Notes: generated from the letters alone by a model not told the origin. Positions 39,146 to 60,004 are shown, counted from the stretch's first letter. The stretch is 64,000 nucleotides of DNA from Myxococcota bacterium (GCA_029243605.1 JAQWRT010000010.1:64175-128174); one strand, 5' to 3'. Numbers and translations: made by a program.

Positions 39146-39862
39146 ATGACCCGCGCCATCGTCGTTGTGCCCACCTACAACGAGGCCGAAAACATTCCCC
39201 TCCTGGTCCCCCAGATTCTGGCCCAGGACGAGAGCCTGGAAGTTCTCATTGTCGATGATGCCTCTCCCGACGGAACGGGCGAAATCGCCGATACCCTCGC
39301 CGCAAGCGAAAGCCGGGTTCACGTCCTTCACCGGCCAGGCAAACAGGGCCTTGGCCCCGCCTATCGGGCAGGCCTTGCCCAAGCCCTGGAACTCGGCGCG
39401 GATTTCGTAATCCAAATGGATGCAGATTTCTCCCATCCCCCCACGAGCCTCCCGCAATTTCTCGAGGAAATAGAAAACCACGACGTGGTCCTGGGGTCTC
39501 GCTACTTGAACGGCATCACCGTGGTCAACTGGCCGATCGAAAGAATACTCATCAGCTGGTTCGGAAACGTCTATGCGCGCAGGATCAGTGGGCTCCCAAT
39601 CAGCGACACCACGGGCGGGTTTCGCTGCATGCGCCGAAGCGTGCTCGAGAAAATTGACTTCGGGCGCGTCCGCTCCAATGGCTACGCATTCCAGATCGAG
39701 ATGAACTACCGATTTGTCAAGCAGGGAGCTCGACTGAAGGAAGTTCCCTTCTTCTTCGTCGACCGAACCCGAGGGACTTCCAAACTCAATTTCCGGATCG
39801 GTCTCGAAGCGCTCTGGATGGTTTGGTGGCTCCGCATTGCCGACGCGCTAGGCCGCCTCTAG
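39146..39862 (+). CDS. polyprenol-monophosphate hexose synthase (Dpm1/Ppm1-like GT2), copy 1
   Basis: 238 aa from ATG 39146, with a GAGGAG Shine-Dalgarno 6 nt upstream. IVVVPTYNEAENI...LIVDDASPDGTGEIA...HRPGKQGLGPAY...QMDADFSHPP is the Dpm1/Ppm1 catalytic-domain pattern. The track ORF from 38963 is over-extended. Confidence 0.85.
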   Translation: MTRAIVVVPTYNEAENIPLLVPQILAQDESLEVLIVDDASPDGTGEIADTLAASESRVHVLHRPGKQGLGPAYRAGLAQALELGADFVIQMDADFSHPPTSLPQFLEEIENHDVVLGSRYLNGITVVNWPIERILISWFGNVYARRISGLPISDTTGGFRCMRRSVLEKIDFGRVRSNGYAFQIEMNYRFVKQGARLKEVPFFFVDRTRGTSKLNFRIGLEALWMVWWLRIADALGRL

Positions 39863-39896
39863 GGGAACGAGATGCCTCAAAGAAGGTCTTATCACT

Positions 39897-41027
39897 TTGA
39901 ATAATCTCGCCGACCGGCCGTGCAGAGTATTGCTCCTGAACGAACGGGACCCTCTCCATCCCAAAACCGGTGGGGCCGAAACTCACGTCTACGAGATTTT
40001 TGAGCGCCTGACCCAGCGCGGATACTCGGTCACCCACTTCAGTTCATCTTTCCCCGGGTCCCCAGAAAAAGAGCGCCATCAGGGAATCGAAATTCGTAGG
40101 CTCGGGGGGCTCCCTGTTTACTATCCCCGAGTGCTTTGGGAGACCGCGCGTGAAACCCGGAAGGGCAACTTCGATCTCGTCGTGGAATGCCTGAACAAGG
40201 TTCCCTTTTACTCACCCGCCTACTCGTCTGTTCCCGTCCTCGCCCTATGCCATCACCTCTTCGGCGAAGTCGCTTTCCAGCAAGTGCCTTGGCCCATCGC
40301 GGCTACCGTATGGGCTTCTGAACGCTTGATCCCTCCGCTCTACCGCTCGAGGCCCTTTCTGGCAATTTCGGAAAGCACCCGGCGCGACCTGATCGGCCGA
40401 GGCCTCCCCCCTTCGCATATCCGCGTGAGCCAGCCGGGCATTGCGCCGCCCACCCTCGAAGTCGATCCCAGTCCAAACCAGGGCCAGGGCGTCATCTATG
40501 TCGGACGACTCGAGGTCTACAAGAAAATCGACGTTATGCTCAGGGCCATGGCGAAGCTCTCCGACACTTTCCCCCAAGCGCCCATCGTCATTGTGGGTCG
40601 TGGGCCCGCGCGGTCCGGTCTTGAATCTCTTGCCCAGGAGTTGGGGATCTCTGATCGCACCCGGTTTACGGGCTTCGTCGAGGACTCGGAACGCGACCGA
40701 CTCCTCTCCGAAGCGCGTGTCTGCGTCTGCCCCTCCGAAAAAGAGGGCTGGGGCCTGACCGTGATGGAATCGTGCGCGGTGGGCACGCCGGTGGTGGCCA
40801 CGAATGCCGATGGGTTGCGGGACTCGGTGCGCGATGGCGAAACCGGTTATCTGGTCGAGGAAGGTGATGTCGACGGCTTTGCAGCGCGCATCGGCCAACT
40901 CCTCGAGGACGATGCTCTCGCGGGCAGGATGGCTTCCCAGGCCATCGCCTGGGCAAAGCATTTTGATTGGGACCGCGCCGCGGATGATATGGCGGGCGCC
41001 ATTGAGGAAGCCCGAGGAAGGCCATGA
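39897..41027 (+). CDS. family 4 (GT-B) glycosyltransferase
   Basis: 376 aa. The C-terminal half has the GT4 E-x7-E region (PSEKEGWGLTVMESCAVGTPVVATNADGLRDSVRDGETGYLV). TTG start, uncertain. Confidence 0.85.
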   Translation: MNNLADRPCRVLLLNERDPLHPKTGGAETHVYEIFERLTQRGYSVTHFSSSFPGSPEKERHQGIEIRRLGGLPVYYPRVLWETARETRKGNFDLVVECLNKVPFYSPAYSSVPVLALCHHLFGEVAFQQVPWPIAATVWASERLIPPLYRSRPFLAISESTRRDLIGRGLPPSHIRVSQPGIAPPTLEVDPSPNQGQGVIYVGRLEVYKKIDVMLRAMAKLSDTFPQAPIVIVGRGPARSGLESLAQELGISDRTRFTGFVEDSERDRLLSEARVCVCPSEKEGWGLTVMESCAVGTPVVATNADGLRDSVRDGETGYLVEEGDVDGFAARIGQLLEDDALAGRMASQAIAWAKHFDWDRAADDMAGAIEEARGRP

Positions 41028-41109
41028 ACCGGAAACCCTACGATCTAGGGCATCCCGGGCCCGCCTTCTTCCCCGCACTCTTTTCCCATCGGATAGATCG
41101 GGCAAGCCG

Positions 41110-42036
41110 ATGAAATTCCTCCGATGGTCCATCCCTTTCCTGATCAGCGCACTCCTCCTCGCGTGGGTATTTCAGGGCATGGAATGGGGCGAACTTCGGG
41201 ACAAGCTGACTTTCGAAACGGTTCAAGTATTCGGACCGGCACTCATCGCATTTCTTGCGGTGAGTCTCCTGATCGAAGCCGTCTGCCTGGTGGATGTCGT
41301 ATCCCATAGCCATCACATGCCGAGTCTTCTGGTGGCAGCGCGTATCAAGGCCGCCAGTTACCCCTTGGGCATTCTCAACTATGCCCTGGGAATCGGTGCG
41401 GTCACCCTCCTGCTTCGCCGACGGGTGGGCATGTCCCTGCAAGAAGCGGCTGGAGCTGTAGGCGTCATCGGTCTCTTCGATCTCGGAAGCTTGATCGCGA
41501 TCATCGCCGTGGGCGCAGCCCTGATGGGCGCCGAAACTCCGGGGGTTCAGGCCGGTGTCCTGGCCGCAGTTGCGGCGGCCATCGGCATCGGTTTCGCCAC
41601 ACTGCGAGCTCCATTCTCCCTGGGCTGGATCGATCGCCTGCGCGATCTACCGATTTTGCATGCCGCGCGAACCCTGCCCCTCTCGGTTCTGGTCCGACTT
41701 GCCTGCCTGCGATTGATTTTCACCGGCAATTTCATCGCCCTGGGCTGGGCGGTTCTAGCGGGCTTCGGCGTCGATGGGATCCCCCTTCTCTCCCTGGCGG
41801 TCAATATTTCCGTTCTCCTAATCGTCGCCGCGCTGCCCATTGCCGCAGCTGGCCTGGGCACAGGTCAATGGGTATTCGTCGAGCTCTTCAAACCCTGGGC
41901 CGATCCCGCGACGCTTCTTGCCGCCAGCCTGACTCTCTCCCTCGGGCTGATCGTCACCCGGGCGGCCATCGGCCTGGTCTTCGCCCGAGAGTTCACCGCC
42001 GAAGCTCTAGCTGCCCAAAAAGAGGAGGAAGCGTGA
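41110..42036 (+). CDS. UPF0104 / LPG-synthase-TM-like 'flippase-like' polytopic membrane protein
   Basis: 308 aa from ATG 41110 (MKFLRWSIPFLISALLLAWVF...), with about 8 hydrophobic helices. Size and pattern fit the PF03706-type family often found beside GT2/GT4 genes. The track ORF from 40804 overlaps the GT4 gene. Confidence 0.5.
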   Translation: MKFLRWSIPFLISALLLAWVFQGMEWGELRDKLTFETVQVFGPALIAFLAVSLLIEAVCLVDVVSHSHHMPSLLVAARIKAASYPLGILNYALGIGAVTLLLRRRVGMSLQEAAGAVGVIGLFDLGSLIAIIAVGAALMGAETPGVQAGVLAAVAAAIGIGFATLRAPFSLGWIDRLRDLPILHAARTLPLSVLVRLACLRLIFTGNFIALGWAVLAGFGVDGIPLLSLAVNISVLLIVAALPIAAAGLGTGQWVFVELFKPWADPATLLAASLTLSLGLIVTRAAIGLVFAREFTAEALAAQKEEEA

Positions 42037-42827
42037 GCGATCTTCTCTTTACCGGCGAGCGTCTCCACAAGGAGAATCCGCTTTTTTCCATCGACCTGGT
42101 GCGCCATCGGGCCGCGTATAGCCGCGCCATCGAGTTGGCCCGCACCACGGGCGCAGAGCGCGTCTTGGACCTGGGCTGCGGCACCGGATATGGCACGGGC
42201 GAACTGGCCGCAGCGCTCCCCAGGACCTTCGCGGTCGATCGAATTTCCCCCGACCCCGGCGCCCGTCACCCGGCCGCCCATTTTATCCGCGCAGATGCGG
42301 CTCACCTTCCCCTGCGCACTCAAAGCTTCGACATGATCGTCAGCTTCCAAGTCATCGAACACCTCGAAGATCCGGCCCCCTATCTGAAAGCCATAGCCCG
42401 ACTTCTCAAACCGGGCGGGACGGCCTTGATCACGACACCCAACCTCCTTGAATCCGACCGGGAGAACCCTTTCCACGTTCACGAATACGAGGCCTCCGAA
42501 TTGACCGCCCTGCTCGGTGAACATTTTTCCCGCGTCGACATGCTGGGCGTCTCCGCCACTCCCGAACCCAAGGCCTACTACGATGCGCGCTTGAAGCGAA
42601 TTCGCTCCATCGTCCGCCTCGACCCCCTCGGCCTGCGCAGACGACTTCCCCGCTGGATCATCGACGGACTCTTTGCCCTCTTCGCCGTGCAGGTCCGAAG
42701 AGGGATCCAAAAAAGCGACGGGCTACCCCAGGTCGGCCTCGAGGATTTCCCGATCCTTGCTGCCCAACCCGACTGTCTCGATCTCTTCGCTGTCTGCCAA
42801 AAACCGCGTAGGGAAAGCGGGTCGTGA
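42033..42827 (+). CDS. class I SAM-dependent methyltransferase
   Basis: GTG 42033 overlaps the upstream stop (GTGA). Motif I reads RVLDLGCGTGYGTGELA, with a post-I acidic residue and FDMIVSFQVIEHLEDP...LLKPGGTALITTPN. Confidence 0.85.
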   Translation: MSDLLFTGERLHKENPLFSIDLVRHRAAYSRAIELARTTGAERVLDLGCGTGYGTGELAAALPRTFAVDRISPDPGARHPAAHFIRADAAHLPLRTQSFDMIVSFQVIEHLEDPAPYLKAIARLLKPGGTALITTPNLLESDRENPFHVHEYEASELTALLGEHFSRVDMLGVSATPEPKAYYDARLKRIRSIVRLDPLGLRRRLPRWIIDGLFALFAVQVRRGIQKSDGLPQVGLEDFPILAAQPDCLDLFAVCQKPRRESGS

Positions 42828-43513
42828 AGGAACGCGTTTTTCGCTTCCGTGCCATCGAGAAACGCATCGCGGCTTCCAAGCCCCGATTCCGAGTGCTGGA
42901 TATCGGCTGTGGCCGGGGGGATAACCTCCGGCGACTCGTCCGCTACGGGGGAGAGCCCTTGGGCATCGAGCCCTCTCTCGAACGGGCCCAGCAGGCTCGA
43001 GCGATTGCGCCGGTCGCCGTTGCGGTCGGCGAGCATATTCCGCTCCCAAACAACAGCTTTGACATGGTCTACATCTCCCATGTCCTCCACCACGCGCGCG
43101 ATCTCCCCCAAGTCCTCTCCGAGTCTCAGCGATTACTCACCCCAGGAGGGCTCCTCTTCGTCATCGAAACCATCGATGACAGCCCCCTGATGCGTTTGGC
43201 CAGGGCCCTCCAACCGAGTTGGGAAGACGATGAGGTCATGAACCGTTTTCGCTACGCGGATCTGGTAGAAAGCTTCGAGGGCGCGGGCTTCGAGGTCCTC
43301 ACCGGGGAGAAATTCAATAGCCTTTATTTTGCCTGGGAACTTCTACCCATGAAGGTCCGCGCCTTGGAGTTTTTCACGCCACTCTTCGTCGGCCTCGAAA
43401 TGATCCTCCACGCTCTGGTGGGCCGCCGTTGGGGGGGGCACTGCTACCTCGTCGCGCGCCGACCCGGTTCGCCCCGTTTCCCCGATGAGGGCATTTCGCC
43501 GCCCCGGGGCTGA
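42824..43513 (+). CDS. class I SAM-dependent methyltransferase
   Basis: GTGA overlap with the upstream methyltransferase. Motif I reads RVLDIGCGRGDNLRRL, followed by FDMVYISHVLHHARD...LLTPGGLLFVIE. Confidence 0.85.
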   Translation: MKERVFRFRAIEKRIAASKPRFRVLDIGCGRGDNLRRLVRYGGEPLGIEPSLERAQQARAIAPVAVAVGEHIPLPNNSFDMVYISHVLHHARDLPQVLSESQRLLTPGGLLFVIETIDDSPLMRLARALQPSWEDDEVMNRFRYADLVESFEGAGFEVLTGEKFNSLYFAWELLPMKVRALEFFTPLFVGLEMILHALVGRRWGGHCYLVARRPGSPRFPDEGISPPRG

Positions 43514-43520
43514 AGCCGGA

Positions 43521-44318
43521 TCAGGGATAGGGCGAGCGAACCTGGGCCTCCAGGCGCGTACCGAGGGGACCTCTCGGCACGAAGTAGCGCTGCTCGAGCC
43601 CACCACGCAGGATCCTGATCTCCGTGGCTGCCCCGGGTTCTCCAACCTGGGTGAGAAATTTGAGAGCGGACGCGGTAAAGACCCTCTGGCCGTCGTAACT
43701 GATGACCTCGTCCTCGGGCAAGAGGCCCGCTTCCGCCGCCGGGGACGTTTCGAGCAACTCGGTGAGAACCACCCGATTGGGCTCCCCTGAGGCAAAGCGC
43801 ATCGCCTCGTAGTCCTCGTCGCCCAGATCTCGCCGAGCATCGACCTCGCTCTGGAATTTCTTTTTTCCGTGCTTCTTCCAGCCCGGCGCCTTGCGCGCGC
43901 GCTGGTTCTCGATGTCGAGTCTTTCCATTTGCAGATGCTCCCAGCGACGCCGAATTCGCAAAACCTGGTCGGCTGTCCAACCCTCGGCCTCCAGGGCGGC
44001 ACTGTCGAACCAGGGTTTTTCGGTGGACGCCGAAGCAACCTTCTCTTGGGCGGGGGCCGTCGCTTCCGGCGACTCGGAGATCACCGGCGGGACCGGCGGC
44101 GAAATCTCCCGAGCGGCCAATTCGGCTTCCAAGGAGCGCACCCGATCTTTCTGAGCCTCGAGTTCTTCGCTCAGCCCTGACTTCTCGAATGCCGGCGCCG
44201 GGCGCTCGGGAGCCACCATCGCGTCGTGACCAGGGCGGTCGCGACCGCTCATCGCCAGCCAGGTCATGCTGCCGCCCAGAAAAATTCCCAGGAGCACCGC
44301 TGCGAGATTCCGACTCAC
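43521..44318 (-). CDS. membrane-anchored PDZ-domain protein with coiled-coil linker
   Basis: 265 aa. An N-terminal TM segment (AAVLLGIFLGGSMTWLAM) and a charged helical region precede a C-terminal PDZ-like segment (SPAAEAGLLPEDEVISYDGQRVFTASALKFL...ATEIRILRGG). Confidence 0.6.
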   Translation of the reverse strand: MSRNLAAVLLGIFLGGSMTWLAMSGRDRPGHDAMVAPERPAPAFEKSGLSEELEAQKDRVRSLEAELAAREISPPVPPVISESPEATAPAQEKVASASTEKPWFDSAALEAEGWTADQVLRIRRRWEHLQMERLDIENQRARKAPGWKKHGKKKFQSEVDARRDLGDEDYEAMRFASGEPNRVVLTELLETSPAAEAGLLPEDEVISYDGQRVFTASALKFLTQVGEPGAATEIRILRGGLEQRYFVPRGPLGTRLEAQVRSPYP

Positions 44319-44425
44319 GGGCGGGACCGCCGTCCGAGGCCTTGAGCGCGCTCCTTACCCTCTGAATAGCTTTCCGTCACTCGAACACGGTAGCACCCAC
44401 GAACATCGTCTATAAAGGGAGCAGC

Positions 44426-46105
44426 ATGGCGGAAACCTCCAGGTCTGAAAGCAGCGAAAAGCCCGACGACCCCTCCAGCGCCTGGGGCGGGATGACGCTC
44501 CTCGCCGGGCTGGCGATCCTTGCCCAACTCCCCCTCTATGACCGCAGCCTGGTCCCTATGGACGAGGGCCACCTGCTCGCCGCCAGCGATGCCCTGGCCG
44601 CGGGGAAACGTCTCTATGCAGACATCCACACGGGCATCTTTCCCGGAATCTACTGGGTCGCCGCCGCGCTCCTCGAATGGCTCGGGCGCGACGCTCTGGT
44701 TCTTCGAGGCGCCGCACTCGTGACCAATAGCGTCACAGCGCTTGCCCTCTACGCGATCGGGCGGCGCATGGTGGCGCCCTATTGGGCCTGGCTCCCGCCC
44801 CTTCTCTATCTGGCCCTCATCGTCGTTTCCTTCCCCGTACTCTCCATGTTCAATTATTCGACCCTCGCGGTGGCCCTGGGCCTGCTGGCGCTTCTCTTTC
44901 TGCTCCGATACCTCGAACGCGGACGCGCCTGGGAGGGCGTCGTTCTAGGACTCTTGATCGCCGCCGCCGCCCTGACGAAACAGAATTTCGGCGGTTTGAT
45001 TTTCGTCGCCCTGCTGATCGCCTTCGTCCTGGCTCGGCGAGACTCGGCCCTCGCCGGCAAGGGCCTTCTTTCGGGGCTTCTCCCCGTCGTCGCCGGAGGC
45101 CTAGGGTTGACCCTGGCTGCGTTTCTAGCGTTATGGATGCCAGGGGCGTTCCCCGCATTCCTCGATCGAACGATTTTCTCTCTCTTCGGATCGCAACTCC
45201 AGGACTTCAACAATCCGATTCCTCCCATTTTCGGCGCCCACCCGGCGGAGGACGGTCGCTTCGTCTTCCTCTACACGCCGCCGACTGTCTTCAACGCCCT
45301 GGTTCACGGCCAACCCTACGCGGGCTTCTCGCTAACCCCGCTCCTGCGCTCGCTTTCAATCCGGCTCAGCTACGGAATTCCTCTCGCGGCACTCATCCTG
45401 GCACCGGCCCTCTTCTTCTTTACGCGCCACTGGGGTGTAAAGGCCGCCCGCAACGCCGCACGCTCCGCTGTCATCTTCGCCGTCGTCTTTTCACCGGGAA
45501 TCTTCCCCTCGGCGATTTGGTCCCATCTGGCGTTCGTCTTGATCCCCATCCTGCTCCTCTTTGCTTTCCTCGGTGATCGCGTCGAAAAGATCTTGCAGCG
45601 GCGTCGGGTCGCGGCCGGTCTCTGGCGAATTCTTGCCGGGGTACTCACCGCAATCGCCCTCATCATCGCCACCAGAACCGCACTCTCGGTTATGGACTTC
45701 TACCCCGAGCCCCTCGGACTTGAACGCGCTTCCCTCCACGTCTCAGCCCGAGATGCCGACCTCCTGAGCGGAGCCGTACGATTTATCCAGGAATGCAGCG
45801 AGCCGGGTCAGCCCGTACTCATCCTGCCGGATATCCCCGCGCTTTATTTTCTCGCCGACCGGCCCAACCCCTCGCCCTTCGATCTGGCGATTCCCGGAAA
45901 CGTCGATGGCCCGCTGATCGCCCGGCAGGCCGAGGCGGCCCAAGTTCGATGCGCGGTGCTCAACCCTCGCATGTACCCAGAATTTCCTCCCTTTGAGCAG
46001 CTTTTCCCCCAGCTCTCAGCGCATCTCGAAAGCGAGTTCCGAATCGTCCGGGAAATCCGAGGCGGAAACTCCCTCTGGTTGGGGCTGGTCCGTAGATCCC
46101 GCTGA
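44426..46105 (+). CDS. GT-C-fold (PMT/ArnT-like) polytopic membrane glycosyltransferase candidate, paralog A
   Basis: 559 aa with a Shine-Dalgarno AAAGGGAG upstream. The first loop motif is LVPMDEGHLL, followed by G-x2-LY-x-D...PG and KQNFGG. There are more than 10 TM helices and a C-terminal periplasmic module shared with paralogs B and C. Confidence 0.6.
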   Translation: MAETSRSESSEKPDDPSSAWGGMTLLAGLAILAQLPLYDRSLVPMDEGHLLAASDALAAGKRLYADIHTGIFPGIYWVAAALLEWLGRDALVLRGAALVTNSVTALALYAIGRRMVAPYWAWLPPLLYLALIVVSFPVLSMFNYSTLAVALGLLALLFLLRYLERGRAWEGVVLGLLIAAAALTKQNFGGLIFVALLIAFVLARRDSALAGKGLLSGLLPVVAGGLGLTLAAFLALWMPGAFPAFLDRTIFSLFGSQLQDFNNPIPPIFGAHPAEDGRFVFLYTPPTVFNALVHGQPYAGFSLTPLLRSLSIRLSYGIPLAALILAPALFFFTRHWGVKAARNAARSAVIFAVVFSPGIFPSAIWSHLAFVLIPILLLFAFLGDRVEKILQRRRVAAGLWRILAGVLTAIALIIATRTALSVMDFYPEPLGLERASLHVSARDADLLSGAVRFIQECSEPGQPVLILPDIPALYFLADRPNPSPFDLAIPGNVDGPLIARQAEAAQVRCAVLNPRMYPEFPPFEQLFPQLSAHLESEFRIVREIRGGNSLWLGLVRRSR

Positions 46106-51671: not shown

Positions 51672-53945
51672 TCAGGGCTGTTCGGAACCCGGGGACTCTG
51701 GAAATCCAGGAGGGACCAGGCGCGGCTCGGCCCATCCCCCCATGAGCAGGTCCTCGCCATCGGGGTTGTCCGCCCGGTTACTCAACTCCAGGGTGATCTC
51801 CTTGCCCGCCCAGGCCCCGAGATCGAGATCGAGATCGAACCAGCGCCGATCCTCGATGCGGTTCGTGGTGTTGAGCCGACGCTCGTAGAGAGTTTCGAGA
51901 CCTTCCGGGGTCCGTACCGAGAGCCGGAAGTCCACCCATGAAGCGGGCAATTTGAACCATCGCTGGGGATGGACCGCGACGGCCGTCACCAAGCGCCCAC
52001 CCTCCCGAGGTACTTTCAGTGGAAGCCCGAGAACGGTGCTGCGATTTCCCGAGGAGGGTCTCAAGGCAATCGCTGGACGGAAGGGCCAGAGCATCTCCCT
52101 CAGATAGAGACCGCGGGATTCCGGGGGAATCACCCTGGAGGGTCCGAAGGTCTCGTCGATTCGAAGAGGGGCCGCAGAGAGACCCGCCGGCGCGATGGGC
52201 CGGCCCGGGCTCTGTTCCTCGGGTGAGCGACGGCGAAGCGCCGCCGGCTTGTACCCCCAGGTGTCGTAACTGAAGATTCGGTCGATCTCGAAATTTTCGA
52301 CCAGGTAGGCGAAGAGCTCCGGAGCATGTTCCCAAAAGGGATCGAAAGTCTGGAACTGGGTAAAATTGTAGAGCACCACGTCGGTACCCGTTTCCTCCAT
52401 GGCCCTCGCTACCGCCGCGTCGCGATCGGGAATCTCGGGAAAGGGCCAGATAATATAAGCCGAGCGGTGAGGCCCTCGGCGCTCGGACAGGAAATTCGCA
52501 ATGGGGAAATACGGAATCCCCCCCAAAGAATCTTCCGGGTCGGTATTCGCCTCGACGTACTCGAGAACGCTCTCGAGCATGGCCACCTCCCCGGGCTTGC
52601 CATAGATCCCCGCCCGGGGATGATCGATCAGGACCGAGTGAGAATCCCTCAGCCGCATCACCAGATGCCCGGAATAGACCACCGCCAGGGATACGGGGAT
52701 CAGTGCCAAGGCCACGGCTGCACGACCTCGCCCGCGCCGACCTCCAACCCATCCCTCCAAGGCAAAAATCACCAAACCCAAGAGCGGCCAGTAGAGCACC
52801 GCCAGATGGATATAGTCCTGGGGTTTATTGAGCCACGCGAGCAGGACCAGGCTCGTCCCCAGAGCGAAGAAAAGGAACTCCACCAGATAACGAAGCCTGC
52901 CCGGATCGCCTGTCGGTGCAGCCAGCCTACGCCTCTGGCGCCAGAGTCGAAAAGCGAAACCGGCGAGGAGGGCTTGGGGGCCGTAGAAGAAAAGCTTGAG
53001 CATGATGTCGTAGAGCGGGGTGTCGGTGTAGAGCGGATGGATCCGCAACGCCGCCCAGTCGGCAGTCAGCATGATTCCCGGCATAGTTTCGGTGATGCCC
53101 AGTTGAGTACGCAGGGCAAGATCTTGGCTGAAGATCGGCCATAGGTCGGGGAAATCGGAATAAGGGTAGGCGCCTATCCCCTTAAAATGGTTGAACACGG
53201 TGAACTGAAGAACGTCATCGAGGACACCTACGCTCCAGTAGTAGAGGCCCGTCGCCGCACCCACCGCCGCTGCCGGAACGATAAAGGTCGCCAAGGTCGA
53301 GAAGCTCGAAGGCCGGCGATCACTCGGGCGGGAAGATTCGTAAAGCGCCAGGGAAGCCAGAAATGCGAGCAGCGCGGCGGCGCCGTAATCCTGTTTGCAA
53401 AAAACCCCAAGTCCAAAGAGCAGGCCTGAAAAAGCCAGAACCCGGCGATCCGAGCGCTCGAAATATACAACCAGAGCTGTGGCGCTAGCGAGGAGAACGA
53501 CCAGGGCCAGGGTCGAGTAGCTGTAGATCTGCCAGTGCGGGAAGCACCAGATTCGGTAGAGCCAGAAAGAACCGAGGGCCGCGAGGGCCCATGGAAGCGA
53601 AGTCACCTTGCGAAAAAGGAAAAAGAGAAGCGTCGCGAAAGCGGCGAACTCCACGATCACCACCCAACGGGACACCCGGATGGACGCGCCTAAGACGTCG
53701 AAGACCAGCGCAAGAAAATGGAAGGCGCCCGGAAGCGGATAGAATGTGGCGTCCCGGTAGAACTCCCCGCCCCTCAGTCGGAGGTCGGCGAATTGCAGGA
53801 CATGCCCCTCGTCCATGAGGCTGAACCACAGGTCGAAGAAGGGGACTTGAAAAAGAATTGTGACGCCGAAAACCAGCCCCAAGGCGAGGCTCGTGCGAGA
53901 CATCATCCCACCTACAGCCTGTGGTCCATCGGGTTGCACATCCAA
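51672..53945 (-). CDS. GT-C-fold (PMT/ArnT-like) polytopic membrane glycosyltransferase candidate, paralog C, with extra beta-rich C-terminal domain
   Basis: 757 aa. Motifs are FSLMDEGHVL, GGEFYRDATFYPLPG and CKQDYGA. The C-terminal extension ends ...FDLDLDLGAWAGKEITLEL... An alternative start about 13 codons downstream (MMSRTS) is possible. Confidence 0.6.
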   Translation of the reverse strand: MDVQPDGPQAVGGMMSRTSLALGLVFGVTILFQVPFFDLWFSLMDEGHVLQFADLRLRGGEFYRDATFYPLPGAFHFLALVFDVLGASIRVSRWVVIVEFAAFATLLFFLFRKVTSLPWALAALGSFWLYRIWCFPHWQIYSYSTLALVVLLASATALVVYFERSDRRVLAFSGLLFGLGVFCKQDYGAAALLAFLASLALYESSRPSDRRPSSFSTLATFIVPAAAVGAATGLYYWSVGVLDDVLQFTVFNHFKGIGAYPYSDFPDLWPIFSQDLALRTQLGITETMPGIMLTADWAALRIHPLYTDTPLYDIMLKLFFYGPQALLAGFAFRLWRQRRRLAAPTGDPGRLRYLVEFLFFALGTSLVLLAWLNKPQDYIHLAVLYWPLLGLVIFALEGWVGGRRGRGRAAVALALIPVSLAVVYSGHLVMRLRDSHSVLIDHPRAGIYGKPGEVAMLESVLEYVEANTDPEDSLGGIPYFPIANFLSERRGPHRSAYIIWPFPEIPDRDAAVARAMEETGTDVVLYNFTQFQTFDPFWEHAPELFAYLVENFEIDRIFSYDTWGYKPAALRRRSPEEQSPGRPIAPAGLSAAPLRIDETFGPSRVIPPESRGLYLREMLWPFRPAIALRPSSGNRSTVLGLPLKVPREGGRLVTAVAVHPQRWFKLPASWVDFRLSVRTPEGLETLYERRLNTTNRIEDRRWFDLDLDLGAWAGKEITLELSNRADNPDGEDLLMGGWAEPRLVPPGFPESPGSEQP

Positions 53946-54074: not shown

Positions 54075-54926
54075 ATGACCCGCCCGGCCCTTAGCCTTGA
54101 TTTGCGTACCCTGCTGCTCTTGGCTGCCCAGTGGACCCTCTTCCTCGGGAATTTCGTGCTCTTTGCGGCCGATACCCTACCCCTTTGGGCCCATATGCTC
54201 ATCACGCTCGTAGTCGTCCACCTCGCCTTTACGATCTGGCACGAAGCCGCCCACGGCACAATCTCGAATCGACGTGGGCTCAACAATGCGGCGGGGATCC
54301 TCGGGATGCTTCCCTACACCACGCCGTATTTCATGCAGCGGCACGTGCACCTTCAACACCATAAATACCTCAACGAGCCGGGTCTCGATCCGAACCTCAT
54401 CTATGCGGACGGACCTTTCTGGCAGCTCCTTTTCCGTTACCTGAAAGCCGTCTCCTACCTCAGGTCGGTGCTCAGGGACGACCCCCGTTCGCTGAGGATG
54501 CGAGCCTCTGACACTTTTTTCGTGGCCCTGGTCGCGGGGGCCTACCTCTTCGCGTTGTCACAGGGTTTCCTGCTGGATCTGATCCTGATCTGGTTCGTTC
54601 CCCTGGTGGGCGCGAAGATCATTATGGACTGGTATATCAACTATCTCCCGCATGTCGGCCTGCCCTCCGACCGCTTTCTGGGAACGCGGATCATCACCGC
54701 CCGATGGCTGACGCCTCTCGTACTGAGCCACAACTACCATGCAGTCCACCATCTCTGGCCCACGATTCCGTGGCACGGCTACATCGCGCGCTTCCGCGCA
54801 AAGCAGGACTACCTTGTGGCGAACGGCGTCCCCATCGAGAGTCGTCTTTTCGGCCCACGCCTTTTACCCGAAGGCGGAGCTACTTCCCAGCACGACCCGC
54901 CGAACGAAGTCACTTCGGGTGGTTAA
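54075..54926 (+). CDS. membrane fatty-acid-desaturase/hydroxylase superfamily protein (three His boxes)
   Basis: 283 aa with His boxes HEAAH, HLQHH and HAVHH in the canonical order and TM helices between them. Confidence 0.8.
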   Translation: MTRPALSLDLRTLLLLAAQWTLFLGNFVLFAADTLPLWAHMLITLVVVHLAFTIWHEAAHGTISNRRGLNNAAGILGMLPYTTPYFMQRHVHLQHHKYLNEPGLDPNLIYADGPFWQLLFRYLKAVSYLRSVLRDDPRSLRMRASDTFFVALVAGAYLFALSQGFLLDLILIWFVPLVGAKIIMDWYINYLPHVGLPSDRFLGTRIITARWLTPLVLSHNYHAVHHLWPTIPWHGYIARFRAKQDYLVANGVPIESRLFGPRLLPEGGATSQHDPPNEVTSGG

Positions 54927-55878
54927 GCCCGGCTCCCTCGAACTCGAGAGGGTCCGCTGTGCCCTCTGCGGATCCGAACGCTCGGAGACTTCGGCGACCG
55001 GGGAAGATTTCGAGTACGAAACCTCCGACGACACCTTTCATTTCGTGCGCTGCCTGGACTGCGATCACCAATACCTCGATCCGCGGCCAGCGACATCCGC
55101 CCTGGATACGATCTATCCCTCCGACTACTACTCGTTCGTGGGAACGACGAATCCCCTGGTGGCCCTTCTTCAGCGCTTCTGGGAAGGCGGAAAGGTTCGG
55201 CTCTACGGCGGATTCGTAGGTCAAGGCGAGCGAAACCTCCTCGATGTCGGCTGCGGCGACGGCCGATTCCTCTCACTTCTCGAGCGACAAGGGGATCCTC
55301 AGTGGAACCCCGTGGGCCTCGAATTCGACGAGGGGGCCGTAGCGAGTTGTCGAGCGAAGGGGTACGAGGCCCATTGCGAACGAATCGAAGACTTCGCCCA
55401 GCGCCCTGATCAGAAAAATCGCTTCGACGCCATCCTCATGCTCCAACTCCTCGAACACGTCGACGATCCCGCCCGGGTGTGTGAGCACGTTCATACACTT
55501 CTCAAGCCGGGGGGGGCCTTCATCGTCGAAACCCCAAACCTCGGCGGGCTCGACTACCGGCTATTCGCCGGGCGTTGGTGGGGCCACTACCATTTTCCCC
55601 GACACTGGAATCTGTTCCGGCTTGCCTCCCTTTCGCAACTCCTCGCATCGAAAGGCTTTGAGATCGACCGCGCCGAATATCTCATCAGCACCTCCTCCTG
55701 GATCATCTCTCATCGAAATTATTTCAAGGATCGAGGCTGGCCCCGCCCCTGGTGGCGCTTCTTTTCCTACCAGAACCCCCTGCTTCTTGGCCTGGCGGTA
55801 ATCGTCGATCAATTTCGCATTCGCTCAGGCCGGGAGACGAGCAACATGCGCGTCATCGCGCGCAAGCGCGCCCACTGA
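54919..55878 (+). CDS. class I SAM-dependent methyltransferase with N-terminal zinc-ribbon
   Basis: GTG 54919 overlaps the desaturase stop by 8 nt. CALCGS...CLDCDHQYLDPRP is followed by motif I LLDVGCGDGRFLSLL and QLLEHVDDP. It is paralogous to 50733..51620. The track ORF from 54739 is over-extended. Confidence 0.8.
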   Translation: MVKPGSLELERVRCALCGSERSETSATGEDFEYETSDDTFHFVRCLDCDHQYLDPRPATSALDTIYPSDYYSFVGTTNPLVALLQRFWEGGKVRLYGGFVGQGERNLLDVGCGDGRFLSLLERQGDPQWNPVGLEFDEGAVASCRAKGYEAHCERIEDFAQRPDQKNRFDAILMLQLLEHVDDPARVCEHVHTLLKPGGAFIVETPNLGGLDYRLFAGRWWGHYHFPRHWNLFRLASLSQLLASKGFEIDRAEYLISTSSWIISHRNYFKDRGWPRPWWRFFSYQNPLLLGLAVIVDQFRIRSGRETSNMRVIARKRAH

Positions 55879-55964
55879 ACCCCTAGCCCCTGGCCTACCC
55901 GCCTCCCATCCCCCTGGAGTGGGAATGATTCCCGGCTGGGCTAAGTGTAGGGCGTGGAGGCCAC

Positions 55965-57347
55965 ATGAAGCGCAGTTCATGGATCAGCATGACCAGACCC
56001 AAACGAGAAATCCGGAAGGAACCGGGGTGGCGAAAGCTGGCAATCGCCCTCGCCCTGCTTCCCCTGATCCTCGGAGCCCCGGGCTGCCAACCCGAGTCCG
56101 ACCCGCCCCGGATCTTGATCATCGGCATCGACGGTGCGAGCCCCGAGGTCGCGTTTCCCATGATGAAGGCCGGCCGGCTCCCGCATCTCGCAGAGATTGC
56201 CGCGACCGGGGTTCATGGTCCCCTACGGTCGGTACTCCCGCTCTATTCACCGCGTATCTGGAATACCATCGCGACCGGAGTCAAGCCGAACGTCCACGGA
56301 ATTCCCGCTTTCGTCAAGCCCGCGACCGGAGGGGGCAAGGCGCTCTACTTGAGCAGCGATCGTAAGGTCCCTGCGCTCTGGAATATCCTCTCGGACCGAG
56401 GACGTAGCGTCGGGGTCGTGAACTGGTGGACTACTTTTCCGCCCGAGAAGATCGAAGGCGTCATGGTTTCGGATCATTTTTTTCCCGAACAGATCGACAT
56501 GATCAAAAAAACCTTCGCCGCCGATCGAGCCTCCGAGGGGGCGCTTATCCACCCGCAGTCCTGGACGCCGCGCGCCGAGGAACAGCTCAAGAACCCGGCC
56601 TCCCTAACTGAATTTGAAAATTTCTTCGACGGCGCGGCCGAGTTGCCCCGCTGGGTCAATCGCTCGCTCCTCAGCCAGCAATTTGTCACCGACCAGGAAA
56701 TCACCCAGGTCGCCCTCGCCCTGGATGCGGATCACCACCTCGACGTGATGATGGTCTTCCTGCCCGGCATCGACCGGGTATCCCATTGGCTCTGGGGCAA
56801 TCTCGAAGCCGAGGATCTCTACCCTCCGACCCTGCAGCCCTCACCCGAGGAACGCGCTGGGGGCGCCGAAGCCCTGCGCGCCTACTACGCCTACACCGAT
56901 GCGCTAATCGGCCGTCTGGTCGCGGGCTATGGCCCCGATGACATGGTTTTGGTGATTTCGGACCACGGCTTCGAAGCCGGAGTCAGCTTGATGTTGTTGA
57001 CGGGCGCTCACGACTCCCCCTCGGCTCTTGACGGGGTTCTCTTTGCCCGCGGGCGCGGCATTCCCCGAGGCCAAGCCGCGGGCCCGGTCAATGTCTACGA
57101 GATCGCGCCCTCGGTGCTGACCTTCGCGGGCCTTCCCTCAGCCCTGGACATGCAAGCGGGGCCCGCGAAATTCCTGGCCGATCTCTCGCGACCCGACCCC
57201 GTCGCGAGCTACAACGCGATCGCCATCGAGCGGTACGCCCCCTCGGCCTCGGGCCATGAGGAGGAGATCATCGAGCACCTCCGAGCCCTGGGTTATCTCG
57301 AGGAAAAGGAAGCGCCCGCCCAGGATCAAGAGCAGGCCCCCCCTTGA
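55965..57347 (+). CDS. alkaline-phosphatase-superfamily phosphodiesterase / nucleotide pyrophosphatase-like protein (probable lipoprotein)
   Basis: 460 aa with leader ...LLPLILGAPGC. The metal/nucleophile region reads ILIIGIDGASPE...LPLYSPRIWNTIATG, with VISDHGFE near the C-terminus, as in PF01663-type enzymes. Confidence 0.8.
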   Translation: MKRSSWISMTRPKREIRKEPGWRKLAIALALLPLILGAPGCQPESDPPRILIIGIDGASPEVAFPMMKAGRLPHLAEIAATGVHGPLRSVLPLYSPRIWNTIATGVKPNVHGIPAFVKPATGGGKALYLSSDRKVPALWNILSDRGRSVGVVNWWTTFPPEKIEGVMVSDHFFPEQIDMIKKTFAADRASEGALIHPQSWTPRAEEQLKNPASLTEFENFFDGAAELPRWVNRSLLSQQFVTDQEITQVALALDADHHLDVMMVFLPGIDRVSHWLWGNLEAEDLYPPTLQPSPEERAGGAEALRAYYAYTDALIGRLVAGYGPDDMVLVISDHGFEAGVSLMLLTGAHDSPSALDGVLFARGRGIPRGQAAGPVNVYEIAPSVLTFAGLPSALDMQAGPAKFLADLSRPDPVASYNAIAIERYAPSASGHEEEIIEHLRALGYLEEKEAPAQDQEQAPP

Positions 57348-60004
57348 AAGAGTCCCTGGAGAAGAGACTCGCCCAGGGCGTCGCGGCATGGGTCGCGGGT
57401 GTCCAGCGGCGCTCGGGTTGGGTGATTGGCCTCTGTGCTGGGCTCACGGTCTTCGCCGGCCTTTACGCCGTAAGCGAACTCGGCGTCAATTCCGACAACG
57501 TTCAGATGGTCGCCGAAGACCTGCCCTCTCGGCGCAATCACGAAGCCTTTGCCCGGCTCTTTCCCAACCTCGAAAACGCCCTGCTCGTGGTCATCGACGC
57601 TCAGACCCCGGAACTCGCGCGCGAAGCCGCTCAAACCCTCGAGACCCGGCTGCTCTCGGATTCGGAATTCGTCGAGAAGGCCTATGTGCCCGGGGGTGGC
57701 GAATTTTTCGAAACCCACGGGCTCCTCTATCGAGACGTCGACGAACTCGACACCTTTGGCGATCAGATGGCGCGCATGCAGCCGATCCTCGCCGCCCTCG
57801 AGCAGGACCCCACCCTCGCCAACCTCGCGTCGCTCATCGAAGTCGGCCTCGAGGAGACGAACCAGACCGGCGCGGCGGCTCAAGTGGGCCCCGAGGGTTG
57901 GGCTGAAATCCTCGAGTCCGTGGGCAACGCGACGGTGGCGGTCTACAGCGAGTTCCCCTTGGCTCTGTCCTGGGAGCAACTCCTCCTCCAGGGCTCCGAG
58001 GTCGAGGTCGCCCGGCGCCGGGTGCTGGTGGTTCACCCCGTCCTCGACTTCGAGAGTTTTCTGACCGCGGGCACGGTTATGGAACGCATTCGGGAGCACG
58101 CCCGAGAACTCGGCTTTACCCCGGCTCGGGGCGTGGAGATTCGGATTACGGGCAACCCGGCGCTGAACTACGAGGAGGTACTGGGCCTGGCCTGGGATCT
58201 CGGCCTGGGCGGAGTGGTCTGCTTCTTCTTCGTCGCGGGGGTTCTGACTCGAGCGCTCCGCTCTCTCAAACTCGTCGCCGCTGCCCTCGCCACCCTGCTC
58301 GTCGGCTTGGTCTGGTCTGCTGCGACCGCAGCCGCGGTGGTGGGGCATCTGAATCTCGTCTCCGCCGCTTTCGGGGTGCTCTTCATCGGACTCGGAGTCG
58401 ACTTCTCCATCCATCTCGGCATGGCGTACGCCGGCCGGGTCCGCGAGGGACTCGGACACGACCGGGCGCTCTTTGAAGCGGGGGGCAGCGTGGGCGGTTC
58501 GCTTCTCATCTGTACCCTGACCACCGCTATCGGCTTTTTCGTTTTCGCTCCCACCGATTATCTCGGGGTCGCGGAACTCGGACTGATCGCCGGCTACGGC
58601 ATGTTCATCATTCTCTTCCTGACCCTCACGCTCTTCCCCGCCCTTCTGAGCCGCTGGCTCAGAATCGAGAGTCCCGATGAAGTCGCCGGAGAACTCCATT
58701 TTCGCTCCACCTGGTGGCGATTTTCCGAAACCCATCCGGGGCTGGTTCTCGCCAGTGCGCTCGTGCTCTTCGCAGCCAGCCTCGCTCTCCTTCCCCGGGC
58801 ACGCTTCGATCTGAATGTCATCGAGATGCGCGACGCCACCACGGAGTCGGTGCAAACATTCAACGATCTGCTCGCACAATCGGGCACCATGTCGCCCTGG
58901 TTCGTCAACTCGGTGGCTCCGGACCTTGAGAGTGCCCAGGTCCTCGCTCGCGAAATGAAAAAACTCGAGAGCGTCGCATCGACCCTCACCCTGAGCGATT
59001 ACGTACCCGAGGATCAGGACGAAAAGATCGAGATCCTCACGGATCTTGGCTACCTGATGGACACTCCCCCTCTGGCCCCGGGAGATCGGCCGGACAGCGA
59101 CCTCGCGAGTCAAATCGCCGCTCTCGAAAACCTCTACGCCTATCTCGGAGCCGATTGGGTCGATGGCGATTCACCCTCGGAATTGATCGCCAGCGTTCGC
59201 GTGCTGCGGGAAAAGCTCGCGATCTTCCTCGCCCGGGTCCAGACCGACGAGGATCCGGGCGCTGCCCTCGACAAACTCGATCAACTCCTGCTTTCGGGAC
59301 TCCCCGATCAGGTCGCCCGTTTGAAGACCGCCATTGGAACGGGAACCGTGGTGCGCGCGGACCTGCCCGATGATCTCGTTGCGCGCATGATCGCCGCGGA
59401 CGGTCAGGTCCGGATACAAACCTTTCCCAAGCACGATTTGGGGAACGAAGCCGCCTTTATCCGTTTTACCGAGGACGTTCAGTCCGTCGATCCCCTGGCC
59501 GCGGGCGTCGCCATCAATCTCGTAGGCTTCGGCCAAGCCACTCGCTCTTCCTTCCAAGAGGCACTCGCCTCCGCCATCACGATCATCACCCTGCTCCTGC
59601 TCGCTCTCTGGCGGCGCATTGGCCCGGTCCTGCTCGTGCTCTCCCCCCTGGCGTTGAGTTCTCTGATGACCGTCGCCGCCATGGTGCTCTTCGATATCCC
59701 GTTCAATTTCGGAAATATCATCGTGATCCCCCTGCTCCTCGGGATCGGCGTCGACAGCGGGATCCACTTGGTCCAGCGCGCCCAACAAACCGGCGGCAAC
59801 GCCGGGGACCTGATGGACAGCACCACCGCTCGGGCGGTCTTCTACAGCGCGCTCACCACCACAGTCAGCTTCGGCACCCTGGCCTTCTCCAGCCATCGCG
59901 GCATGGCCAGCCTCGGCGTGGTGCTCTCCATCGGCATGGTCGCCACGGTGATCGGCAACCTGATCGTGCTTCCGGCGCTGCTGACTCGCTTCGGCCGAAG
60001 CTAG
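57344..60004 (+). CDS. MMPL/RND-superfamily exporter, HpnN-like
   Basis: 886 aa with two 6-TM bundles, each preceded by a large periplasmic domain. The N-terminus (RRSGWVIGLCAGLTVFAGLYAVSELGVNSDNVQMVAEDLPSRRNHEAF...) resembles hopanoid-associated HpnN-type RNDs. The TTG start overlaps the upstream stop (TTGA). Confidence 0.75.
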   Translation: MKESLEKRLAQGVAAWVAGVQRRSGWVIGLCAGLTVFAGLYAVSELGVNSDNVQMVAEDLPSRRNHEAFARLFPNLENALLVVIDAQTPELAREAAQTLETRLLSDSEFVEKAYVPGGGEFFETHGLLYRDVDELDTFGDQMARMQPILAALEQDPTLANLASLIEVGLEETNQTGAAAQVGPEGWAEILESVGNATVAVYSEFPLALSWEQLLLQGSEVEVARRRVLVVHPVLDFESFLTAGTVMERIREHARELGFTPARGVEIRITGNPALNYEEVLGLAWDLGLGGVVCFFFVAGVLTRALRSLKLVAAALATLLVGLVWSAATAAAVVGHLNLVSAAFGVLFIGLGVDFSIHLGMAYAGRVREGLGHDRALFEAGGSVGGSLLICTLTTAIGFFVFAPTDYLGVAELGLIAGYGMFIILFLTLTLFPALLSRWLRIESPDEVAGELHFRSTWWRFSETHPGLVLASALVLFAASLALLPRARFDLNVIEMRDATTESVQTFNDLLAQSGTMSPWFVNSVAPDLESAQVLAREMKKLESVASTLTLSDYVPEDQDEKIEILTDLGYLMDTPPLAPGDRPDSDLASQIAALENLYAYLGADWVDGDSPSELIASVRVLREKLAIFLARVQTDEDPGAALDKLDQLLLSGLPDQVARLKTAIGTGTVVRADLPDDLVARMIAADGQVRIQTFPKHDLGNEAAFIRFTEDVQSVDPLAAGVAINLVGFGQATRSSFQEALASAITIITLLLLALWRRIGPVLLVLSPLALSSLMTVAAMVLFDIPFNFGNIIVIPLLLGIGVDSGIHLVQRAQQTGGNAGDLMDSTTARAVFYSALTTTVSFGTLAFSSHRGMASLGVVLSIGMVATVIGNLIVLPALLTRFGRS

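Follow-up and report, generated by a model that had tools for sequence, protein, structure and literature searches.

A conserved cluster of 16 genes, about 21 kb in length and not previously characterised, was identified in an uncultured marine myxobacterium. It occupies positions 39146-60004 of a 64,000-nt stretch of DNA (Myxococcota bacterium, GCA_029243605.1, JAQWRT010000010.1:64175-128174), referred to here as the window, and it is a real gene cluster. We read it as a pathway in two layers that would produce an envelope glycolipid or lipoglycan, similar in logic to the phosphatidylinositol mannoside (PIM)/lipomannan (LM) pathway but located in a Gram-negative phylum, and put the probability of this reading at about 0.5. 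The reading draws on the composite architecture of the cluster, on its conservation in related genomes and on the enzyme classes of its products. The genes are as follows.

G1, 39146-39862, + strand: Dpm1/Ppm1-like family 2 glycosyltransferase (GT2a), soluble, with no transmembrane (TM) segment; predicted polyprenyl-phosphate hexose synthase; basal module
G2, 39897-41027, + strand: cytoplasmic family 4 glycosyltransferase (GT4, GT-B; PF00534/PF13439); proposed lipid-acceptor priming enzyme; basal module
G3, 41110-42036, + strand: polytopic UPF0104/MprF-flippase-like protein (PplT, AglD2/YbhN); proposed flippase for a lipid or lipid-linked sugar; basal module
G4, 42033-42827, + strand: class I S-adenosylmethionine (SAM) methyltransferase, Methyltransf_11/23, with a GTGA overlap with G3; basal module
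G5, 42824-43513, + strand: class I SAM methyltransferase with a GTGA overlap with G4
G6, 43521-44318, - strand: membrane protein with one TM pass, a region resembling a coiled coil and a PDZ domain at the C-terminus (PDZ_6/PDZ_2); predicted periplasmic
G7, 44426-46105, + strand: GT-C paralogue a, 559 aa, with DEGH in the first loop and without a C-terminal beta-sandwich
G8, 46163-48331, + strand: GT-C paralogue b, 722 aa, with a predicted GT-C_A TM core, periplasmic alpha/beta domain and CBM/MAM-like beta-sandwich
G9, 48328-49827, + strand: divergent protein like the Zn-type medium-chain dehydrogenases/reductases (MDR), with an ATGA overlap with G8; ADH_N, 27.9 bits
G10, 49847-50617, - strand: Dpm1/PpgS-like family 2 glycosyltransferase (GT2b); second predicted polyprenyl-phosphate sugar synthase
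G11, 50733-51620, - strand: class I SAM methyltransferase with an N-terminal CxxC...CxxC; Methyltransf_23, 94 bits; operon G12-G11-G10
G12, 51672-53945, - strand: GT-C paralogue c, 757 aa (744 aa in the JGI call), with the architecture of G8
G13, 54075-54926, + strand: membrane His-box di-iron oxygenase (desaturase or hydroxylase); PF00487, 107.6 bits
G14, 54919-55878, + strand: class I SAM methyltransferase, N-terminus Zn-ribbon-like, overlapping G13 by 8 nt
G15, 55965-57347, + strand: alkaline phosphatase (AP)-superfamily phosphodiesterase of the nucleotide pyrophosphatase/phosphodiesterase (NPP) type, probable periplasmic lipoprotein; PF01663, 88 bits
G16, 57344-60004, + strand: HpnN-family (HAE3) resistance-nodulation-division (RND) lipid transporter with a TTGA overlap with G15; proposed product exporter; basal module

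Architecture and conservation of the cluster

The composite nature of the cluster was apparent from a minimal locus on a 1.5-Mb contig (L056:4179-14611; ERZ25072999 ctg321645). Here a secretin, an outer membrane protein (OMP) beta-barrel and a CDP-alcohol phosphatidyltransferase, all on the minus strand, stand divergent from a block of five genes, which is followed by NFACT and Fpg, again on the minus strand. The five central genes are tightly packed and co-directional, and no GT-C gene is found among them. Their products correspond to GT2a (76% identity to G1), GT4 (51%), UPF0104 (47%), the methyltransferase G4 (55%) and the HpnN-like RND protein G16 (53%). Genes G1-G4 and G16 would on this analysis form a self-contained basal operon able to synthesise, flip and export a glycolipid. 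Since L056 contains only this GT2a-GT4-UPF0104-methyltransferase-RND set, G5-G15 constitute a variable periplasmic elaboration module. In the window these genes sit between the methyltransferase and the RND gene, which implies that they were inserted as a module or else were lost from L056. The number of GT-C genes forms a series across loci, with none in L056, one or two in L041, which represents an intermediate form, three in the window, and four to six in L001, L050 and L051.

To follow the cluster across relatives, the 16 proteins were mapped by tblastn onto 44 loci, all from metagenome-assembled genomes (MAGs), obtained in a scan of one genome per GTDB species. Gene content was taken from the collection's own gene calls, and the loci extend 10 kb either side or to the contig end, so that all synteny counts are lower bounds. 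G8 has approximately 220 detectable relatives, nearly all in MAGs of uncultured Myxococcota or 'Deltaproteobacteria'. The order from G1 to G15 or G16 was intact in at least 13 species-level genomes, in which G8 identity ranged from 48 to 90%. Altogether, gene order is retained in about 15 Myxococcota MAGs at species level, every one uncultured. At 34-45% G8 identity only a core remained, in the order GT2a, GT4, (an extra PMT_2-like GT-C), UPF0104, methyltransferase, (a second methyltransferase), PDZ protein, GT-C a and GT-C b, often accompanied by an AP enzyme. A preliminary description of the window, made from its sequence, had named synteny in related genomes as the test that would tell a functional cluster from a chance aggregation. 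The genome scan answered it, with gene order kept across species and a reduced core persisting at about 35% identity; the grouping is no chance aggregation.

Part of this synteny within the close clade is plain collinearity, since the housekeeping genes downstream keep their order as well. A functional connection is favoured by three independent links: the L053 operon described below, the P0075-type gene fusions, and the survival of the core where the flanks have changed. Individual genes differed in how they were retained. G2 stays beside G1 and G3 in relatives including L056, and G3 and G4 remain paired in L056 and even in distant loci. The G7-G8 pair is retained in most loci and G6 keeps its position ahead of it, while G5 is variably present (8 of 13 close loci). 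G13 and G14 are either jointly present or jointly absent. The RND gene G16 directly follows the G4-like methyltransferase in L056 and is retained in L054, L055, L041, L009 and L013. The position of G9 is taken in other relatives by an SGNH-like protein and an MBOAT protein.

The region between G8 and the RND gene is variable in relatives, where it contains MBOAT and SGNH/AlgX-like proteins, Acyl_transf_3, a YfhO-like GT-C, sulfatases, a carbamoyltransferase or a Dlt-like set. These variable right-hand genes are the usual enzymes of extracytoplasmic glycan decoration. The Dlt-like set, in a distantly related locus (L005:15651-18817), comprises an AMP-binding ligase, a 79-aa carrier-like protein and an MBOAT protein beside a GT2 and a YfhO-like GT-C, and it hints at a D-alanylation-type modification of a glycopolymer in a diderm. 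Six GTDB representative MAGs titled 'uncultured Spirochaetaceae' or 'Spirochaetales' (L010, L014, L017, L023, L030 and L046) carry a Myxococcota-type cluster with full synteny at 40-61% identity, and these titles are probably wrong.

A partial counterpart was identified in the gammaproteobacterium Oceanicoccus sp. KOV_DT_Chl (L053:8053-10987, FQLF01000001.1), in which a G14-like methyltransferase, a His-box protein of the FA_desaturase family and a UPF0104 protein (50% identity to G3) are encoded by an overlapping operon. Next to this operon are genes of a decaprenyl-phosphate-arabinose-type donor pathway, namely GtrA, UbiA(+HAD), FAD_binding_4 and adh_short. This strain could serve as a culturable handle on the system.

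The gene calls were confirmed. Sixteen open reading frames (ORFs) tile positions 39146-60004 with intergenic gaps of -8 to 129 nt, and an independent JGI call on the same contig gave equal products (559, 722, 499, 256, 295, 744, 283, 319, 460 and 886 aa). Annotation of all 16 genes with Pfam and NCBIfam profiles recovered the domains that had been named in the preliminary description, at the same positions. Six start/stop overlaps had been counted there; five were found, among them every one that had been listed individually (GTGA at 42033 and 42824, ATGA at 48328, 8 nt at 54919 and TTGA at 57344). The cluster layout comprises five transcription units on both strands, and a scan of the cluster for promoters and terminators revealed nothing above chance level. 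By hydropathy, G1, G2, G4, G9, G10, G11 and G14 are soluble, G3, G7, G8, G12, G13 and G16 are polytopic, and G6 and G15 each have one N-terminal hydrophobic segment; this topology agrees with the compartments proposed below. No Wzx, Wzy, Wzz, ATP-binding cassette (ABC) transporter, initiating phosphoglycosyl transferase or sugar-nucleotide domains were detected in the cluster by Pfam or NCBIfam, in line with the earlier exclusion of a standard O-antigen or capsule route, which survived these tool-based checks. No description of a matching cluster was found in the literature, and the gene combination, reported at the outset as unrecognised, retains that status.

Predicted enzymes and the acceptor lipid

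The two putative donor synthases G1 and G10 share 43% identity, and both match Glycos_transf_2 (PF00535; 116 and 109 bits, respectively). The top PDB match of G1, which covers the whole catalytic domain, was the dolichyl-phosphate mannose synthase of Pyrococcus furiosus (5mlz, E 7.8e-31), with ArnC structures next. The top NCBIfam models were the archaeal Dol-P-hexose transferase and AglJ for G1, none of which reached its equivalog cutoff, and PpgS for G10 (58 bits, under cutoff); G1 and G10 also gave weak HpnB and CruG matches. By homology, G1 and G10 appear to be GT2 polyprenyl-phosphate glycosyltransferases of the Dpm1/GtrB/ArnC type.

G2 gave PimA as its top PDB match (2gej/4n9w, 83 bits) followed by MshA, and MshA as its top NCBIfam model (123 bits, under cutoff); it scored 56.3 bits against the GpgS model NF053787, which has a cutoff of 480. 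G3 has approximately 8-10 hydrophobic segments and scored 27.8 bits against PF03706 (LPG_synthase_TM/UPF0104), under the gathering score of 33.4, and its orthologues match this family clearly. No GtrA, SMR or MATE flippase domain was found in the 16 genes, which leaves G3 as the sole flippase candidate.

The three GT-C proteins were related to each other but distant from known families. G12 is a full-length paralogue of G8 (26% identity over 764 aa), and G7 is paralogous to both. G7 and G8 match PMT_2 (29.6 bits for G7), and G7 also reaches GT87 at threshold (25.3 bits, cutoff 25), a match that G8 and G12 lack. G12 has no Pfam match above threshold (PMT_2, E 0.01), and its orthologues do match PMT_2. 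All three share an acidic first-loop motif, DEGH or DEGY, with DEGH at residue 46 in G7 and residue 45 in G12, and D41-E42 of G8 is invariant. In an exhaustive G8 profile search 248 proteins scored at E<=1e-30, and orthologue-level clusters numbered only about 60. The G8-family profile did not match any PDB sequence, and the fold therefore had to be predicted.

The AlphaFold2 (AF2) model of G8 (pLDDT 92, pTM 0.90) combines a predicted GT-C_A membrane core with an alpha/beta domain in the periplasm and a beta-sandwich at the C-terminus. Foldseek matched the core to STT3, AglB, PglB, EmbA/B/C, ArnT, DPY19, AftA, Pmt4 and ALG9 (E 1e-9 to 1e-4). The oligosaccharyltransferases (OSTs) STT3, AglB and PglB ranked first (E 1e-9), TM-scores were similar across GT-C_A families (about 0.4-0.45), and ArnT gave the best superposition (TMt 0.56-0.58). 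The tail (residues ~556-722) was matched to CBM6, CBM16, CBM29 and MAM domains (E 4e-4 to 1e-2), and on this model G8 would carry an EmbC-type lectin-like C-terminal domain. The modelled fold of G8 and the first-loop motif in all three paralogues point to GT-C enzymes. G7, G8 and G12 lack PDB sequence matches and resemble only PMT_2 or, at threshold, GT87; as judged from their sequences, they would make up a separate small family. The OST hallmark WWDxG was absent from G7, G8 and G12 and present in 1 of 64 G8-family members, and membership of the STT3/AglB/PglB group was rejected on that ground.

The count of three GT-C-like paralogues given in the preliminary description stood, with the qualification that the triad is what remains of an ancestral set of at least four. 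Many relatives encode a further PMT_2-like GT-C of 445-464 aa between GT4 and UPF0104 (L001:4004-5377, L050:3122-4516, L051:3344-4681). In the window this gene is cleanly absent, the corresponding gap measuring 82 nt (41027 to 41110).

The AF2 model of G15 (pLDDT 89) had Xanthomonas NPP, ENPP1/3, autotaxin and PhnA as its top folds. Its metal and nucleophile residues are invariant, and it has a hydrophobic leader with an invariant Cys41 in a non-canonical lipobox (APGC). G15 is physically linked to the GT-C family by fusion proteins of 1127-1138 aa (P0075, P0082 and P0095; L003:10001-13384, L004, L019 and L024), in which a full G8-type GT-C including the beta-sandwich is followed by a mature G15-type NPP domain; the fused domain of P0075 is 44% identical to G15 over 407 residues. 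Two tandem G15 paralogues of 445 and 493 aa precede the RND gene in a complete genome (L054:6671-9482, OZ252299.1).

Among the remaining proteins, G6 has one N-terminal TM helix in addition to its PDZ domain. G9 is a weak member of the Zn-MDR group in the polyol-dehydrogenase branch, with PDB matches to threonine, butanediol, galactitol-1-phosphate and idonate dehydrogenases (E 1e-11). G13 contains three His boxes (HEAAH, HLQHH and HAVHH), and its top NCBIfam model was CrtR (104.6 bits, cutoff 475). G16 aligned end to end with HpnN of B. multivorans (5khn, 367 bits) and passed the HpnN model TIGR03480 (830.9, cutoff 751.85) but failed the stricter equivalog NF052374 (576.6, cutoff 1100).

Evidence on the acceptor came from G2 and from genes adjoining the cluster in relatives. 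The top named relatives of G2, PimA and MshA, are both inositol-directed GT4s. A CDP-alcohol transferase lies beside G1 in L001, L017 and L056; over its full length it scored best as an archaetidylinositol-phosphate synthase (66 bits) or phosphatidylinositol phosphate (PIP) synthase (38-53 bits), with cutoffs of 170-180, compared with only about 20-33 bits against PgsA, PssA and Cls. Neither PIP synthase nor myo-inositol phosphate synthase (MIPS) was found in the window. Inositol lipids are rare in bacteria, and a passage in PMC9246714 cites a report of them in Myxococcus xanthus. The acceptor and product had earlier been called unpredictable. The acceptor can now be narrowed towards a lipid, possibly an inositol lipid, and both acceptor and product still stand as predictions.

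Proposed pathway and competing explanations

From the domains, folds, paralogy, overlaps, conservation, modularity and fusion described above, we infer substrates, sugars, order of steps, destination, acceptor and product as follows. In the cytoplasm, G2 would prime a membrane lipid, which may be an inositol phospholipid as for PimA, and G1 and G10 would make two polyprenyl-phosphate-sugar donors. G4 may methylate the lipid-linked intermediate while it faces the cytoplasm, and the methyltransferases G5 and G11 with the dehydrogenase G9 may tailor lipid-linked donors. This tailoring is placed before flipping because the periplasm offers neither SAM nor NAD(P); AglP, DprE1/E2 and ArnD are analogues of such donor tailoring. 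G3 would then flip the lipid-linked species, either the primed glycolipid or a polyprenyl-phosphate-sugar donor. On the periplasmic face, G7, G8 and G12 would extend the glycan with polyprenyl-phosphate sugars from G1 and G10, and the CBM-like domains of G8 and G12 could hold the growing chain as in EmbC. G15 may act alongside the GT-C enzymes, trimming, remodelling or transferring a phosphodiester of the product. G13 and G14 would modify the lipid part, a desaturase or hydroxylase followed by a methyltransferase being the simplest reading, and G16 would carry the finished product towards the outer membrane. The general scheme of cytoplasmic polyprenyl-phosphate-sugar synthesis, a flippase and periplasmic GT-C transfer had been put forward in the preliminary description and survived the tool-based checks.

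A more specific form of this pathway is less likely than not: a non-lipopolysaccharide (non-LPS) lipoglycan built on an inositol-phospholipid or inositol-phosphoceramide anchor, the Gram-negative counterpart of PIM/LM and of glycosylphosphatidylinositol (GPI)/glycosylinositol phosphoceramide (GIPC). Its methylated glycan would be polymerised entirely in the periplasm by a private family of CBM-bearing GT-C enzymes physically associated with an NPP-type phosphodiesterase, and its export to the outer membrane would be of the HpnN type and not by Lpt. The GT-C series of 0, 1, 3 and 4-6 genes would then trace how a simple glycolipid evolved step by step into a lipoglycan.

Several observations weigh against the two-layer pathway. 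All carriers of the full cluster are uncultured. Alignments of G2 with PimA and MshA fall mostly in the donor-binding C-terminal domain and lie far under equivalog cutoffs. The inositol-type CDP-alcohol transferase is missing from the window and adjoins the cluster in three loci only. Flippase activity of UPF0104 is biochemically unproven for any glycolipid (PMC12713373), and several lipid-linked species would all depend on one UPF0104 protein. L056 has a Dpm1-like GT2 with no GT-C nearby. The adjacency of the HpnN-type gene could be inherited collinearity, given that NFACT, Fpg and IleRS downstream are equally syntenic. The CBM-like domain is also compatible with protein or LPS acceptors.

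Two other destinations for the periplasmic sugars were considered. We regard it as unlikely that the target is LPS (lipid A, core or O-chain) or some other polysaccharide made elsewhere, which the locus would decorate after its polymerisation in a manner similar to ArnC/ArnT, RgtE/RgtA-D or GtrABC, with each GT-C paralogue adding one polyprenyl-phosphate-linked, possibly methylated sugar to an existing glycan. PMT_2 is the ArnT/Rgt family, ArnT superposed best on G8, the host is a diderm, and the variable decoration genes resemble surface-antigen diversification; the several GT-C paralogues with Dpm1/ArnC-like GT2s also resemble rgt loci. The three-component concept (PMC11127046) would accommodate such a role. 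It would nonetheless leave the GT4-UPF0104-methyltransferase-RND basal operon, which stands alone in L056, unexplained, and no lpx, waa, lpt, O-antigen or other backbone genes were found in the cluster or the window. Transfer to proteins, as in PMT O-mannosylation or an archaeal Agl-like system in which UPF0104 flips a methylated lipid-linked sugar for the GT-C enzymes, seems more doubtful still. The Agl logic (GT2, soluble glycosyltransferases, the methyltransferase AglP, UPF0104 in AglD and the GT-C AglS) matches the gene list, and the PMT-like D-E motif in the first loop, the AglJ and Dol-P-hexose models of G1, the top Foldseek ranks of STT3, AglB and PglB, the presence of a PDZ protein and the grouping of GT2, UPF0104 and GT-C genes in archaea (PMC5898192) agree with it. 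The near-absence of WWDxG argues the other way, and TM-scores of about 0.45 for all GT-C_A families mean that the OST ranking does not discriminate. In addition, the partners seen in relatives (MBOAT/AlgX-like proteins, sulfatases and acyltransferases) are ones typical of polysaccharides, and the RND lipid exporter and the GT4-flippase operon would have no explanation.

A role centred on hopanoids or other terpenoids, in which the HpnN-type protein exports a glycosylated or methylated polycyclic or carotenoid-like lipid that G13 hydroxylates and the glycosyltransferases glycosylate, is very improbable and was rejected as the main explanation, as no shc or hpn genes lie nearby. The match of G16 to TIGR03480 and, over its full length, to HpnN structures, the identity of the top named relative of G13 (the beta-carotene hydroxylase CrtR) and the weak HpnB and CruG matches of G1 and G10 had all spoken for it. 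G16 fails the NF052374 equivalog, however, G13 falls far short of the CrtR cutoff, and shc, hpn, crt and squalene genes are absent from the window and from at least 50 related loci. GT-C enzymes are not known to act on hopanoids. We give the least credence of all, and very little, to the idea that there is no single system and that unrelated envelope operons lie side by side through collinearity of the clade. Such an arrangement would fit the five transcription units on both strands, the uninformative promoter and terminator scans and the synteny of NFACT, Fpg and IleRS downstream and of the secretin and aldo-keto reductase upstream. It is countered by core genes that stay together at 35-45% identity where the flanks differ, by the G8-G15 fusion, which links two of the units, by the Oceanicoccus operon, which links G3 with G13 and G14, and by the functional coherence of all 16 products.

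Related systems and flanking genes

The locus comes closest in its workings to the PIM/LM/lipoarabinomannan (LAM) pathway and to three-component periplasmic glycosylation, and it belongs to no characterised cluster. It shares with PIM/LM/LAM biosynthesis (PgsA1, PimA/PimB, Ppm1, PimE, MptA-C, EmbC and MmpL) a cytoplasmic GT4 whose top hit is PimA, a Dpm1/Ppm1-like synthase, several periplasmic GT-C proteins, two of them with an EmbC-like CBM-type C-terminal domain, an RND lipid transporter, the lack of a Wzx/Wzy/ABC route and, in some relatives, an inositol-type CDP-alcohol transferase. It differs in its Gram-negative Myxococcota host, in its UPF0104 candidate flippase and in its separate GT-C family. 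It also has four SAM methyltransferases, a His-box oxygenase, an NPP phosphodiesterase that is sometimes fused to a GT-C, and a PDZ protein, its RND protein is of the HpnN type rather than the MmpL type, and phosphatidylinositol synthase and inositol genes are not in the window.

Three-component systems (GtrA/B/C, ArnC/ArnEF/ArnT, CsbB/GtcA/YfhO and Citrobacter polyprenyl-phosphate-ribose; PMC11127046) likewise combine a GT2 synthase, a flippase and a GT-C, and their donor tailoring by DprE1/E2 or ArnD parallels the roles proposed for the methyltransferases and G9. In contrast to the present locus, with UPF0104, 3-6 GT-C genes and two donor synthases, their flippases are of the GtrA, SMR or MATE type. 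They attach individual side-chain sugars to glycans of Wzx/Wzy, ABC or lipid A pathways, whereas no such backbone pathway is encoded in the cluster or elsewhere in the window.

The adjacent, co-oriented GT4 and UPF0104 genes are arranged as gpgS and gpgF in the glycolipid operons GpgSDF (P. aeruginosa) and HexSDF (C. difficile) (PMC12713373); the present locus lacks their deacetylase and has much larger periplasmic elaboration and export modules. The grouping of GT2, UPF0104 and GT-C also resembles the archaeal AglD-type neighbourhood of GT2, UPF0104 and PMT/STT3-like GT-C genes described by Makarova et al. (PMC5898192), in which UPF0104 would flip a polyprenyl-phosphate sugar. G16 is a full-length homologue of the HpnN transporters of B. 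multivorans and R. palustris, from which it differs in failing the equivalog model and in having no hopanoid genes nearby; its cargo would be the product of the locus. GPI assembly has a matching list of enzyme classes, a resemblance of logic only: a GT4 that acts on an inositol lipid (PIG-A), a Dol-P-Man synthase (DPM1), three GT-C enzymes (PIG-M/V/B) and AP-superfamily PF01663 enzymes (the ethanolamine-phosphate transferases PIG-N/O/G), with acyltransferases also present in relatives of the cluster. G15 differs from the GPI enzymes in having an N-terminal leader and no membrane domain. Pfam gave no match in the cluster to a PIG-L deacetylase, to GT50, GT76 or GT22, to membrane ethanolamine-phosphate transferases or to a transamidase, and membership of the GPI pathway was rejected because the deacetylase, the transamidase and the GT50/76/22 families are missing.

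Detailed knowledge of lipid-anchored glycans that are assembled extracytoplasmically with polyprenyl-phosphate sugars comes only from Actinobacteria (PIM, LM and LAM), archaea and the eukaryotic endoplasmic reticulum (GPI, N- and O-glycans). If the proposed pathway is correct, it would be a second major route to outer-membrane glycolipids beside LPS, HpnN-type RND proteins would gain a non-hopanoid cargo, and the GT-C proteins would be a new family with a fused or partnered NPP phosphodiesterase. The loci would also offer a natural series in which to study the growth of glycolipid operons into lipoglycan pathways. If the product is instead an ordinary decoration of LPS or exopolysaccharide, the locus would be merely another example of three-component glycosylation. 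Taken together, these data make the cluster a coherent and conserved candidate for a lipoglycan pathway in a Gram-negative host, one accessible to experiment and with an unusual set of enzymes whose chemistry we infer.

The flanking genes are unrelated to the cluster. On the upstream side are a GspD-type secretin that stands alone, an aldo-keto reductase and a fusion of a major facilitator superfamily (MFS) protein with a spermidine synthase, and downstream lie NFACT, Fpg and IleRS. The remainder of the window is housekeeping, and hopanoid, LPS and inositol genes were not found there. The secretin (36711-38933, - strand) is divergent from G1 and contains N0, three Secretin_N and Secretin domains and a weak SPOR-like C-terminus. 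No other type II secretion system (T2SS) or type IV pilus genes occur within about 30 kb of it, and its synteny with the cluster is confined to close relatives and L056. G6 was considered as its GspC partner, an idea set aside as a working hypothesis because no T2SS-C domain was found in G6 and the secretin keeps its place only in those genomes. A pilin-like N_methyl protein is encoded far from the secretin, at 6522-7070. At 3334-6108, where G+C content is high and gene calls are ambiguous, a GT2 gene (490 aa, - strand) overlaps or abuts a TPR ORF (717 aa, + strand). The MFS fusion (32706-35738, - strand) encodes a 1010-aa protein with a transporter-like N-terminus and a spermidine/spermine synthase domain, and it is kept upstream of the cluster in L002.

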